From a virus: 64,000 nt of DNA. Positions 4,289-37,004 of this stretch are shown one piece after another. The notes beneath the pieces were generated by a model, which had not been told where the DNA came from, ran no database searches, and worked only from the letters and a program-made list of their open reading frames with translations. Location of the stretch: UHGV virus genome UHGV-0171999; one strand, given 5' to 3'. The position numbers and the translations under genes are program-made. Within the stretch, counting starts at the first letter, position 1. Every line of letters begins with the position of its first letter.

Positions 4289-4603
4289 ATGAAAACTTTC
4301 AAAGAATTTACTTCTACAACTACCCCGGTTTCTACTATTACTGAAGCTACTCTTACTTCTGAAGTTATTAAAGCAAATAAAGGACGAGAAGGTAAACCAA
4401 TGATTAGTTTGGTTGATGGTGAAGAAATCAAAGGTACTGTTTACCTAGGCGATGGATGGTCTGCTAAAAGGATGGTGCTACAATCGTTATCTCTCCTGCT
4501 GAAGAAACTGCGTTGTTTAAAGCTAAACACATTTCTGCGGCACATCTCAAGATTATTGCTAAAAATCTTTTGTAATAAATATTTCACAAAGTTGTTTACA
4601 TAG
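4289..4603 (+). CDS. ipI-locus internal-protein-like gene with capsid-targeting-like leader; apparent frameshift near 4466
   Basis: N-terminus MKTFKEFT...ITEA resembles IP capsid-targeting leader; after about residue 60 the frame runs into junk through the next promoter, while another frame reads DGATIVISPAEETALFKAKHISAAHLKIIAKNLL to a stop near 4575. Confidence 0.5.
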   Translation: MKTFKEFTSTTTPVSTITEATLTSEVIKANKGREGKPMISLVDGEEIKGTVYLGDGWSAKRMVLQSLSLLLKKLRCLKLNTFLRHISRLLLKIFCNKYFTKLFT

Positions 4604-19168: not shown

Positions 19169-19516
19169 ATGCTGACACGCGAACAGTTTGAAAAAATCAT
19201 TAAATTAGTACGTGATGTTGAAATAGATTCATATCAATTAGCAGTTGAGCATTGTGAAGGATACTCATACGATGGTATAGAAGCAGCTAAAAAGGATTTG
19301 GATAAATCCAAAGCTAAGTTAGTTCAATATCTTGAAATGATTAGGTGGACTGAAAAGCAGATGTTTTTAATGAAGCTAATTGAAGAATATGCTAATGCAG
19401 TTTCTGACTATGAGTATTCTGCTCGAGAAAGAGGTACAGCTTTCGCAAAGGAAGAAATGAAAATCATGGTTGATGCTCACACAAAGCTTCAGAATTTTAT
19501 TGAAAACGTCATTTAA
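19169..19516 (+). CDS. hypothetical protein
   Basis: 115-aa ORF. Confidence 0.55.
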   Translation: MLTREQFEKIIKLVRDVEIDSYQLAVEHCEGYSYDGIEAAKKDLDKSKAKLVQYLEMIRWTEKQMFLMKLIEEYANAVSDYEYSARERGTAFAKEEMKIMVDAHTKLQNFIENVI

Positions 19517-25081: not shown

Positions 25082-25144
25082 GGAAAATATGTCAGTAGTA
25101 ATTAATAATGTCAATGCAGTAATTAAATCTTTAGTTAATAAAAA

Positions 25145-25978
25145 ATGATGAATGAATGGACTGTATTTCGTCGTGGAGAGCCAGATAAATTTTTTCATAG
25201 ATTTAACTCAACTTTGGATTTGAATGTTATCGACAGAGATGTTCATGCAGAAATTTTAGATAAGTTTAAAGTTGATATTGGATTTGGATTAGAAAAACAT
25301 TTGCAGCGAACAAATGGGTCTGGAATGAGTTTATCTAATCGCATTATGAAAGCCCTTAATAAAATTGGAGCGTTGTCTCGTATTAACGCGAGTGAAATCC
25401 TTCGTAATTATAATAAAGGATATGACCTTTATGGTCGACTAATGCCGAAGTTATCATTTGACCAAATGATTGCAGATTTGTGGGAAAATCAACGACGATT
25501 ATTAGCATTAGGTGCTCGATTAGCTAAAGGTCTAGATAAACAAATGATTTTTAAGACCAATAATACAGAAGACCTTAAATGCTTTAAATTTAGTATTCGT
25601 GGCGATGATTATTACATCAGAGCTCGCTCTACAGATTATGTTAATATGGGTCATCATCTCTGTTTAGCCTTTGAAGTTTTAAAAGAAGCTGGAACACTAG
25701 AATATTCATCTGGTGCAAAATGCCCTATTGGCTCAAGTTGTATTTTAATTTATCGCCCGAATGAATCCAGTTCAACTACATTGCCTACGAAACCTGTACC
25801 AGTTCGTAGTAACGAAAAACATTCTGAACAAATTGATTATTTTAATAAGCAAATTGAAGAGCTGAATATTTCTATTCAACAATATGATGATGAAATTTTC
25901 AGACTATCTGGACTGAGTAGTAAAGCTAAATCTGAGCGTGAAAAGTTAATTAAAATTGTTGATTTACTTAAATCTTAA
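25145..25978 (+). CDS. hypothetical protein with C-terminal coiled coil
   Basis: 277-aa ORF. Confidence 0.55.
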   Translation: MMNEWTVFRRGEPDKFFHRFNSTLDLNVIDRDVHAEILDKFKVDIGFGLEKHLQRTNGSGMSLSNRIMKALNKIGALSRINASEILRNYNKGYDLYGRLMPKLSFDQMIADLWENQRRLLALGARLAKGLDKQMIFKTNNTEDLKCFKFSIRGDDYYIRARSTDYVNMGHHLCLAFEVLKEAGTLEYSSGAKCPIGSSCILIYRPNESSSTTLPTKPVPVRSNEKHSEQIDYFNKQIEELNISIQQYDDEIFRLSGLSSKAKSEREKLIKIVDLLKS

Positions 25979-25986
25979 GGAACACC

Positions 25987-26334
25987 ATGAAAACTCGTTC
26001 TCAAATTGAAGATATGGTTCGTAATGCCAGCTATACTCGTGATGTTATGACATTTTTGTGTCAAAATAATTTAGACCCTGATAAAGTTAATCGTGATATT
26101 CACTTTAAATATATGAATAGCAGTGAATGGTTACGTCATTTTAGTAAAGCGGGGTATATTACACAAATGACTGCTCGTGAGCAGCTCACCGATTTCTGTA
26201 AAACTATTGATTATAAAAATCCTCTATTTGTTCAGGCGTTGGTCAGAGTAAGGTTGATTTATCATCTGGATTTTTTAATCCAAATCATTATCGTATTGAA
26301 TGGAGATTTATTGCTCTATTCCGTAAACAATTAA
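25987..26334 (+). CDS. 5' portion of an apparently frameshifted gene
   Basis: Protein-like to about residue 95, then junk (LDFLIQIIIVLNGDLLLYSVNN); shift near a T-run around 26271. Confidence 0.45.
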   Translation: MKTRSQIEDMVRNASYTRDVMTFLCQNNLDPDKVNRDIHFKYMNSSEWLRHFSKAGYITQMTAREQLTDFCKTIDYKNPLFVQALVRVRLIYHLDFLIQIIIVLNGDLLLYSVNN

Positions 26335-26417
26335 AGCAAATTTTATCAACTGCGAGTCGATTAAAAGGTTCTGATATTAACTTAAAGAACCTGAAATTTG
26401 ATGGTTATACTCTTCAG

Positions 26418-27317
26418 ATGGAAGTAAGACCATTAAAAGAAAATAATAGAACTGCACGAATTAGCTTTAAACCTAATACAAAAAATTCTCTTTCAATTTG
26501 CGAATGCCTTAAATCGCAGTTGACAGAAGCATTTAAGTATATGGATGTTGTTGCCGCTGTTCAGTCTAAGATTTTACCTCGTTTTGAGCGATTTAAATTA
26601 GACACAACAACATATGAACTTGATATGATCGTTTCATTTAAATACGATTTTTTGAGAAAGGATGAAGTCCCGCAAGAGAAAAAGCAGGAAGTGCAAGATA
26701 ACTTAAATTTAAATTTATCTAATTACTCATCAAACGATCCTAAATTTTGGATGTATAGTTCAGGTAATGAGGATGCATGGAAATTCAATAAAGTGAATAT
26801 GCTTTTTAAGCATGCTCGCAAATTATTTACCGCGGGTGATGACCGTACAAATACAGTTCATGTTAAGGACTGGGTTATTGCTGATGAAGTAACACATAAG
26901 CCAGGTGGTTCATCAGTGTTAATTAATATCCAGGTTCCTTATTATTACTCACGTAATCTCGGCACCATGAACTCTAGAGAAATTAATAAGCACAACAAAA
27001 CTATTCGTTCGTTGTCTTATAAACTCCGCATGATGTTAAAAATCATGGACGTAGTGGAAATGTATGACGAAACCGAAGATAATGGTTCAATGTTATACAG
27101 CTCACGCATTCTAATTAAACTGAAGAACCCTAATACATACAAGCCAGTTGTAAAAGAACCTAAAGTAGAAAAGGTTGATAACCTGAGCGAAGAACGCGAA
27201 TATCTTAATGCTCGCTTAATTGAAGTTGAAAAACAGATTGAAGAGCATACTAAAGTTCTTAAAGATTTAACTGCCAAAGCAAATGGTTTACGTAATGCTA
27301 TTGAGGTATTAAAATGA
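26418..27317 (+). CDS. 3' portion of an apparently frameshifted gene, C-terminal coiled coil
   Basis: Frame is open and protein-like from about 26217 with no start codon or Shine-Dalgarno until the ATG at 26418. Confidence 0.45.
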   Translation: MEVRPLKENNRTARISFKPNTKNSLSICECLKSQLTEAFKYMDVVAAVQSKILPRFERFKLDTTTYELDMIVSFKYDFLRKDEVPQEKKQEVQDNLNLNLSNYSSNDPKFWMYSSGNEDAWKFNKVNMLFKHARKLFTAGDDRTNTVHVKDWVIADEVTHKPGGSSVLINIQVPYYYSRNLGTMNSREINKHNKTIRSLSYKLRMMLKIMDVVEMYDETEDNGSMLYSSRILIKLKNPNTYKPVVKEPKVEKVDNLSEEREYLNARLIEVEKQIEEHTKVLKDLTAKANGLRNAIEVLK

Positions 27318-27631
27318 AAAAGCGTCTATTAGAAGATATTGCAGCTTCAAGTAATTCCAGTCTAATTAAAATTATTATGGCTGGTGAAGAAGACGATCTA
27401 GAAATGCGTGGAAAGATTCATGGTTGTGACGATCTAGACTTTAAACCTCCTGCTTGGGATGCCATTATGGTTATGGTTGAACGCCGCGAAAGGGCTTCTA
27501 AGAATGTTCCAAACTGTCCAAAGTGTGGTACTGAACAGGTACAATTAGTTCATTGGCAGACTAGTAATCTTCGTTATAAATGTCGTTATTGCAAACACCG
27601 ATTTAACCGAGAAGAAAATGACCAAGCGTAA
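27314..27631 (+). CDS. Zn-ribbon protein
   Basis: CPKCGTEQ...CRYCKHRF; 105 aa. Confidence 0.55.
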
Positions 27632-27869
27632 AGAATATATGAAGACTGCTGAAATGGCAGTCCGCGAATTAGCAATAGCTTATTATTATGAACATGGTAA
27701 ATTTCCTGATAGATACAGCGTGCTTAAATCTGCTTTAACTCGTTCATATAAAAATATGCTATCAGAAGTAAGTGATATTATATACAAACATAAAGAACAA
27801 ACGGGCCAAAGTCTTGATTATGACGAGACTTTTAAACAAGTACTAGGAATTAAGGAATATTATGTTTAA
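27618..27869 (+). CDS. hypothetical protein
   Basis: 83-aa ORF. Confidence 0.5.
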
Positions 27870-28125
27870 GGTATATGGTTATGATAGCAGCATCCATAAA
27901 TGTGTGTATTGCGATAATGCAAAACGTCTTTTGACTGTAAAGAAACAGCCGTTTGAATTTATCAACATTATGCCGGAAAAAGGTGTTTTTGATGATGAGA
28001 AAATCGCTGAGCTTCTGACGAAACTAGGTCGTGATACTCAAATTGGTTTGACGATGCCACAAGTATTTGCTCCTGATGGAAGTCATATTGGTGGATTTGA
28101 CCAATTGCGGGAATACTTTAAATGA
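27862..28125 (+). CDS. nrdC: glutaredoxin/thioredoxin NrdC
   Basis: [24 protein letters not shown]... CxxC; 87 aa as T4 NrdC. Confidence 0.9.
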
Positions 28126-28520: not shown

Positions 28521-28841
28521 ATGAATATTGAAAATAAATTAGATATTGATGCAGTTCTGAGTGAAATCATCGAAGACCATGATGCATTTTCAGAAAATTA
28601 TGATTTCGATTTTTCGGATTATCTTAAACCTATCGAAATAGAAGACTGGGTACAAGATGGCAAATGCCAATATCGCCAGTGTGTTTATTTTAGTCCAAAA
28701 CACAATGTACATGTTTCCGTAAATGAATGCCGTTCAGGTTCTTACCATTCTGACTGGTATTATGCAGTTCCGACTGTTGAACTAGTCGAGCCCCGTGAAC
28801 GTGTAGTAACTCAGACAGTACGAGAATGGATTACGCTATAA
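28521..28841 (+). CDS. hypothetical protein
   Basis: 106-aa ORF from the track. Confidence 0.5.
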   Translation: MNIENKLDIDAVLSEIIEDHDAFSENYDFDFSDYLKPIEIEDWVQDGKCQYRQCVYFSPKHNVHVSVNECRSGSYHSDWYYAVPTVELVEPRERVVTQTVREWITL

Positions 28842-36830: not shown

Positions 36831-37004
36831 ATGAACACCCAGACTTCTGAAATAGATTATAACAAAATTCGTTCCTCTAAAGTAGAAATGATGAGACGCT
36901 TTAAAGAGGCTCACGATAAAGCTAAAGCAGAAGGAACTATAACATATAAGCGTATAAAATTTAGAAGCTCTAATGAGCCTCTGTATGGTGTATTATGTGG
37001 ATAG
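36831..37004 (+). CDS. small hypothetical protein
   Basis: 57-aa ORF (below track threshold) ending at terminator hairpin. Confidence 0.4.
   Translation: MNTQTSEIDYNKIRSSKVEMMRRFKEAHDKAKAEGTITYKRIKFRSSNEPLYGVLCG

Follow-up and report, generated by a model that had tools for sequence, protein, structure and literature searches.

Two open reading frames derived from nrdC.5 and nrdC.3

The 64,000-nucleotide stretch of virus genome UHGV-0171999 analyzed here (the window) is a segment of a T4-like phage (Tequatrovirus) whose nearest deposited relatives are about 96% identical. Between positions 25,987 and 27,317 it holds two adjacent open reading frames (ORFs) on the plus strand, here called ORF1 and ORF2, which an earlier note made from the sequence alone had read as one gene split by a frameshift. 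We compared the locus with the annotated relatives Salmonella phage Lv5cm, Shigella phage Shfl2, RB27, KIT06, and T4, where the genes follow in the order nrdC.6, nrdC.5, (nrdC.4), nrdC.3, nrdC.2, nrdC.1, nrdC. In the window, parts of two of these genes, nrdC.5 and nrdC.3, are joined by a deletion, and the nrdC.5 part has in addition lost a single base. The features of the locus are the following.

25987..26334, plus strand: ORF1, 115 amino acids; nrdC.5 codons 1 to 83 in the native frame, then 32 out-of-frame codons and TAA
25987 to about 26798, plus strand: nrdC.5-derived part, as mapped onto the gene order of the relatives
26233..26235, plus strand: codon 83, CAG, site of the missing A (CAA GGC in relatives, CAG GC in the window)
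26235..26798, plus strand: nrdC.5 codons 84 to 271, intact and in the ORF2 frame
26271..26277, plus strand: T TTT TTA, a run of six T's followed by A; a −1 slippery heptamer in phase with ORF1
26418..27317, plus strand: ORF2, 299 amino acids; NrdC.5 residues 144 to 271 plus NrdC.3 residues 137 to 308
26782..26798, plus strand: deletion joint; microhomology AAGTGAAT at 26791-26798, preceded by the shared 8-mer AATTCAAT at 26782-26789
26799..27317, plus strand: 3′ part of nrdC.3, codons 137 to 308 plus stop, including the C-terminal coiled coil

Both ORFs have the extents and lengths that the earlier note had given them, and the relatives, T4 among them, carry a single uninterrupted nrdC.5 ORF of 334 to 342 amino acids across the break point, as one would expect if a single gene had been split by a one-nucleotide frameshift. 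In a tblastn alignment the match switches from frame 1 to frame 3, and one base added anywhere in the overlap of the two frames yields an ORF of 443 amino acids without stops. The repaired product corresponds to NrdC.5(1-271)::NrdC.3(137-308). Thus, the proposal of a fused protein of about 440 amino acids with a C-terminal coiled coil holds for the length and the coiled coil, but the fusion is a chimera of nrdC.5 and nrdC.3 created by deletion rather than one natural protein.

As had also been noticed, the frame of ORF2 is open well before its start codon: from 26217, directly past a TAA at 26214, it extends over 67 codons to 26418 without any ATG, GTG, or TTG, an opening whose chance expectation is about 0.004 at 34% G+C, and its codons in this interval encode conserved NrdC.5 residues. 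The native sequence of ORF1 ends at residue 83, earlier than the approximately 95 residues assigned to it before, and the out-of-frame tail contains the peptide LDFLIQIIIVLNGDLLLYSVNN. While the start of ORF1 is preceded by a normal ribosome-binding site (AAGGA), no Shine-Dalgarno motif precedes the ATG at 26418, although 63 of 94 ORFs have one. This ATG is the internal codon Met144 of nrdC.5 and lies 84 nucleotides beyond the ORF1 stop.

The repaired protein matches Pfam family DUF7235 (PF23882) with 304 bits (cutoff, 30; E = 1.3e-90), its residues 1 to 273 covering profile positions 1 to 246 of 307, and PHROG 2351 with E = 3.5e-140; over residues 1 to 272 it shares 94.5% amino acid identity with T4 NrdC.5 (NP_049703.1). 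As is conserved for NrdC.5, it is encoded in the nrdC-mobD early region, with nrdC.6 on one side and nrdC.4 or nrdC.3 on the other. Profile positions 247 to 307 and the C-terminal helix are absent from the window product, and in place of one uninterrupted ORF of about 334 to 342 amino acids with a C-terminal coiled-coil helix the frame is broken between codons 83 and 84. Residues 268 to 443 match PHROG 1435 and PF26897 (Phage_T4_Y04OP), for PHROG 1435 over profile positions 130 to 334 of 334 only (E = 3.4e-54); a full-length NrdC.3/NrdC.4 protein is not encoded, the deletion having removed codons 1 to 136 together with the ribosome-binding site. In its last 172 residues the repaired protein reaches up to about 91% identity with its nearest relatives in PF26897.

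Seen against T4 nrdC.5, the window gene retains the position downstream of nrdC.6, the start, and the ribosome-binding site, but it differs in its broken frame, in the lack of the last 71 residues with the confidently predicted helix 283-341, and in the fusion of its body to nrdC.3. The nrdC.3 part is closest to the Shfl2/Lv5cm type, from which it differs by the lack of the first 136 codons and of a translation start of its own and by an end of another allele type: the coiled-coil end (27180-27317) is identical to the T4 allele, whereas the preceding region is of the Shfl2/Lv5cm type. To judge from this alternation of allele types, mosaic recombination within nrdC.3 is indicated.

NrdC.5 is a tiny family, with 13 representatives among 1.84 billion proteins. 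No solved structure was found for the NrdC.5 or the NrdC.3 family, and the AlphaFold2 model of NrdC.5 is poor (predicted local distance difference test score, 51), with only the C-terminal helix 283-341 modeled confidently. Natural variants of NrdC.5 (among P0040, P0055, and P0091) include a 250-amino-acid form with a frameshift-like tail and 8 member sequences, a 297-amino-acid form with an internal deletion, and a 173-amino-acid protein that consists only of the coiled-coil end. In nature, nrdC.5 is truncated or rearranged repeatedly. The arrangement in the window has no second instance in the collections searched: among about 15 billion proteins ORF1 and ORF2 are each singletons, exact and 90%-cluster look-ups in the same set returned no other copy of the frameshift or of the joint, and among 5.8 billion clusters no protein other than the window's own ORF2 covers more than 67% of the chimera.

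A microhomology deletion fuses nrdC.5 to nrdC.3

The sequence crossing the joint reads AATAAAGTGAATATGCTT in the window. Its 8-bp element AAGTGAAT occurs there once, compared to one copy each in nrdC.5 and nrdC.3 of Shfl2; in Lv5cm and KIT06 the two copies read AAGTGAGT/AAGTGAAT. A short direct repeat thus marks both ends of the missing segment in undeleted relatives and is reduced to a single copy at the joint, as in microhomology deletions of the T4 type. In Lv5cm, which lacks nrdC.4, 678 bp separate the copies; in Shfl2 and KIT06, which have it, the distance is 1735 bp. Relatives carry correspondingly 678 or 1735 bp extra at the joint. Both copies stand in the same codon phase, and the two parts join in frame. 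Missing from the window are NrdC.5 residues 272 to 342 (the last 71 codons), the intergenic translation signals, and NrdC.3 residues 1 to 136. No phage record covers the region without a break: the best 26 match a 1500-nucleotide query in two pieces, over about 2170 nucleotides, and none of 492 phage records spans 26700-26900.

An equal crossing-over between the two genes was considered and ruled out. A profile comparison pairs NrdC.5 106-127 with NrdC.3 125-146 (probability, 74%), so that the joined positions (NrdC.5 271 and NrdC.3 137) are not equivalent in these distant paralogs, and the exchange was illegitimate.

Deletions of this kind are known from the laboratory. Evolved T4 lost 0.7 to 6 kb at microhomologies of 6 to 10 bp, one set of deletions removing nrdC.5 (PMC9391042), and microhomology-mediated deletions in T4 are also the subject of two papers cited in PMC9391042, Kumagai 1993 and Wu 2021. 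The window resembles the laboratory deletions in that one copy of a repeat of 6 to 10 bp is retained at the joint, in that its size, 678 or 1735 bp, is near the bottom of the same range or inside it, and in that the loss is confined to nonessential accessory genes, nrdC.5 itself having been lost in one evolved clone. It differs from them in coming from a wild phage in a metagenome, in showing no evident compensating amplification, and in the separate one-nucleotide frameshift that accompanies it.

One base is missing from codon 83

The frameshift lies in codon 83, where one A of an AA pair at 26234 has been lost (CAAGG to CAGG); relatives read GTTCAAGGCG where the window reads GTTCAGGCG (26233-26236). 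This is the sole gap in DNA that is otherwise 93 to 97% identical to Shfl2, Lv5cm, RB27, KIT06, and two IMG/VR contigs. With positions 26150-26330 as the query (181 nucleotides), 493 phage records matched, and all 60 of the 60 listed span 182 to 183 nucleotides, i.e., they are one base longer than the query, and in one record two bases longer.

The earlier note had placed the indel in the T run at 26271-26276 and had regarded it as a homopolymer-associated lesion. Neither assignment agrees with the comparison, in which the lost base comes from an AA pair 38 nucleotides upstream of the T run. The run itself was rejected as the lesion because intact alleles share it: the identical GGATTTTTTAAT (six T's plus A) is found in RB27 and the two IMG/VR contigs, whose gene is intact, and the others have the synonymous TTTTTC. 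The window thus shows an unchanged run of six T's and a change from AA to A, not an indel in a long homopolymer.

Reproducibility of the lesions and distribution of indels

Two metagenome assemblies contain both ORFs exactly: ENA scaffold PASO19-1_SAMN09781698_METAG-scaffold_6 (167,058 bp) and a Logan contig from SRR7658682. Across both lesions neither differs from the window (100% identity). The two assemblies probably come from one gut metagenome and from a single read set. At 8 to 17 bp, the repeat is probably shorter than the k-mers of the assemblers (k = 31 for the Logan assembly), so that a collapse of the assembly graph would not create the joint. The label “PASO19-1” suggests the Madagascar gut cohort of Pasolli 2019 as the source, and this cohort was sequenced on Illumina HiSeq2500 from Nextera XT libraries. 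If these are indeed the data, the loss of one base from an AA pair is unlikely as a consensus error.

Screened for frameshifts against KIT06, GEP001, and SA21RB, the large and essential genes of the 64 kb all proved unbroken; genes 43, 44, 45, 46, 47, 62, 41, 61, uvsX, and nrdD are intact. In a comparison with KIT06 over about 46 kb, no ORF of 70 amino acids or more other than nrdC.5 has a broken frame, though the 95-amino-acid ipI also has a one-base loss. Isolated coding indels are confined to ipI (4466), the N terminus of nrdC.6 (25140), nrdC.5, and possibly a small ORF (36838). This pattern argues against a generally error-ridden sequence, though the events are few. A systematic sequencing artifact, which had been the favored explanation before, accordingly loses ground: two assemblies are identical, large and essential genes are intact, and the other frameshift (ipI, 4466) sits in a dispensable antidefense gene.

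Searches for further copies of the lesions yielded none. Neither the frameshift nor the joint was found in IMG/VR, where a control with the intact sequence gave a single match, so that few Tequatroviruses are represented there, nor was either lesion found in JGI metagenomes or GTDB genomes; a search for a sibling genome with identical flanks and an intact locus returned the same phage only. Lineage-specific substitutions are almost lacking from the nrdC.5 part, which rules out an old pseudogene. Because the remaining coding sequence shows no further decay, both lesions would be recent.

Probable recent inactivation of two accessory genes and the alternatives to it

Taken together, we consider it probable, if well short of certain, that the locus records a real, recent, and natural inactivation of two adjacent accessory early genes by the microhomology deletion route known for T4. 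A deletion of 678 bp between the copies of AAGTGAAT, or of 1735 bp if the ancestor had nrdC.4, would have produced an in-frame nrdC.5::nrdC.3 chimera, and the independent loss of one A in codon 83 of nrdC.5 would have shifted its frame. Translation from the normal start would then yield a 115-amino-acid fragment (83 native plus 32 foreign residues), and ORF2, which has no ribosome-binding site, would give little or no 299-amino-acid product. The identities of the genes, the two lesions, their uniqueness, and their recurrence in two assemblies are shown by the comparisons; we infer that the reads truly carry the one-nucleotide loss, that ORF2 is left untranslated, and that function is lost, including the anti-Dsr1 function known for T4 nrdC.5. 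A possible further consequence would be a polar effect that about 1 kb of untranslated RNA exerts on the downstream genes nrdC.2, nrdC.1, and nrdC. The locus reflects the routine degeneration of a dispensable gene by routes known from T4, and nothing in it suggests a new system or mechanism.

Several observations weigh against this interpretation. The two assemblies demonstrate independence of the assembler, not of the data, and the near absence of lineage-specific change in the nrdC.5 part fits a consensus error as well as a recent mutation. With an in-frame joint and all 1.1 kb of the frame behind it remaining open, the locus is compatible with a functional chimera. Finally, the argument that frameshifts occur only in accessory genes draws on three to four events and is statistically weak.

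In line with these reservations, the deletion and the fusion might be real while the absence of the A reflects an error of sequencing or of the consensus, in which case an intact 443-amino-acid NrdC.5::NrdC.3 chimera would be encoded, with the N-terminal and middle regions of NrdC.5 followed by the middle region and coiled coil of NrdC.3. A single inserted base does restore a stop-free ORF of that length, the nrdC.5 part is virtually free of lineage-specific change, and further A's missing from A runs (4466, 6904, 25140, and 29418) could hint at a systematic bias. These other differences are, however, mostly intergenic or at sites that vary among relatives; the base in question was lost from an AA pair and not from a long run, two different assemblies concur, the platform was probably Illumina, and the large conserved genes of the 64 kb all keep their frame, all of which leads us to regard an error at this one position as unlikely, though still worth keeping in mind. 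Doubt can also be directed at the joint, as related T4-like strains may co-occur in a metagenome and the joint sits in sequence common to both genes, so that a collapsed repeat or a chimera of co-occurring strains could conceal two intact genes. Yet the shared stretch amounts to only 8 bp (8 plus 8, interrupted), which should be far below the assembler k-mers, the same joint lies inside contigs of 167 kb and 24.5 kb in the two assemblies, and no alternative contig was found that carries the missing 678 bp beside these flanking alleles; a misassembly is therefore very improbable.

Two further possibilities accept both lesions and ask whether the locus could nevertheless be expressed. It is tempting to speculate that it serves as a split gene, with ORF1 providing an 83-residue N-terminal helical module and ORF2 a new chimeric protein whose translation would begin at ATG 26418 through reinitiation or weak internal initiation. 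ORF2 runs open for 299 codons to precisely the native stop of nrdC.3, which overlaps the nrdC.2 start, and in a low-confidence structure model the first beta-strand of the middle region begins at Met144. Nonetheless, Met144 is an ordinary internal NrdC.5 residue in all relatives, no Shine-Dalgarno motif lies upstream of it, 84 nucleotides separate it from the ORF1 stop, and the arrangement occurs in one genome only, where nothing indicates selection; we consider such use of the locus quite doubtful. Alternatively, the ribosome itself could restore the frame. T TTT TTA is the heptamer used by gag-pol of human immunodeficiency virus type 1 (HIV-1), and like the programmed −1 sites of dnaX (A AAA AAG) and of retroviruses (U UUU UUA), the window's heptamer at 26271-26277 stands in phase within the overlap of two frames, fitting X XXY YYZ in the ORF1 frame. 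A slip there gives ...LDFFNPNHYR..., which rejoins the native sequence, and the 443-amino-acid product would have residues 84 to 95 replaced (ALVRVRLIYHLD instead of GVGQSKVDLSSG). Unlike those sites, however, the window has neither a stimulatory structure nor conservation: the segment 26278-26360 folds at −10.3 kcal/mol (z = −0.13 versus shuffled sequences), the only hairpin begins about 20 nucleotides away and not at a spacing of 5 to 9 nucleotides, there is no match in Rfam, and no Shine-Dalgarno-like element lies 10 to 14 nucleotides upstream. The heptamer also preexists out of phase in intact genes as an ordinary synonymous allele, its in-phase position is expected by chance in one of three cases, and the split arrangement is present in no relative examined, all of which have one continuous ORF. 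Programmed frameshifting is accordingly the explanation to which we give the least credence, as close to negligible.

However it might come about, whether as 443 amino acids through an error at the missing A or low-level −1 slippage, or as the 299-amino-acid ORF2, production of the chimera appears improbable on the whole. If it is made, it would represent a domain-shuffled antidefense protein in which the anti-Dsr1 body of NrdC.5 is combined with the middle module and coiled coil of NrdC.3, a distant paralog of NrdC.5, and its target specificity might be altered.

Should the inactivation of nrdC.5 and nrdC.3 be real, its significance would lie in the antidefense context. T4 nrdC.5 is an early gene that counteracts the Dsr1 sirtuin defense of Escherichia coli ECOR17 (Srikant, Guegler & Laub 2022, PMC9391042). 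The phage would then be a wild, gut-borne T4-like phage that lacks nrdC.5, to date the one T4 gene demonstrated to overcome Dsr1, that has also lost half of nrdC.3, and whose ipI, an anti-GmrSD gene, is frameshifted. It would provide a natural counterpart of the shedding of antidefense genes by microhomology deletions that T4 undergoes in the laboratory, and it would be predicted to be sensitive to Dsr1-bearing hosts. Two cautions follow for annotation and method: the locus yields two spurious “hypothetical proteins,” and assigning an indel to the nearest homopolymer can misplace the lesion.

Neighboring genes and other indels

The genes around the locus are listed below.

25145..25978, plus strand: nrdC.6, 277 amino acids, upstream neighbor; PHROG 2257
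27314..27631, plus strand: nrdC.2, downstream neighbor, intact
27618-27869: nrdC.1, reported Septu inhibitor, intact
27862-28125: nrdC, as mapped onto the gene order of the relatives
28521-28841: homologue of 49.2, reported OLD inhibitor, intact

The stop of nrdC.3 overlaps the ATG of nrdC.2 (ATGA), an overlap that relatives share. NrdC.1 inhibits Septu (bioRxiv 10.1101/2025.11.20.689424), Gp49.2 inhibits OLD (PMC13096335), and IPI has been described as inhibiting the type IV restriction system GmrSD (bioRxiv 10.1101/2025.11.20.689424). The neighborhood constitutes an antidefense island of which only a part has decayed, nrdC.1 and the 49.2 homologue being intact.

In ipI (4289-4603), which encodes internal head protein I (95 amino acids in relatives), a run of five A's is reduced to four, with the indel at 4466; the native frame is lost from about residue 61 onward, and the resulting ORF is 104 amino acids long. 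This is probably the first of the two homopolymer frameshifts that the earlier note had counted in the window.

The start of nrdC.6 lies 19 codons later than annotated in KIT06, Lv5cm, and Shfl2, the protein beginning with MMNEW. The A run before it (25134-25145; difference at 25140) has six A's compared to seven in these three phages, and the 19 extra N-terminal codons annotated in relatives (MSLVINNVNAVIKSLVNKK) are out of frame in the window. The short form may be normal variation rather than a defect, as the T4 protein, described as 31.7 kDa, fits the short form.

Two more differences from KIT06 concern small ORFs. At 19349, within 19169-19516, a 10-nucleotide stretch of KIT06 (GGTGGAATAATGAAAACTG) is absent from the window, which removes the start of one small ORF of the mobD region and apparently merges the 64- and 57-amino-acid ORFs of KIT06 into one of 115 amino acids. 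An extra C at 36838 of the window (CCC versus the CC of KIT06) maps by its coordinates close to where a small conserved ORF begins, and it may represent another frameshift in a small accessory gene.

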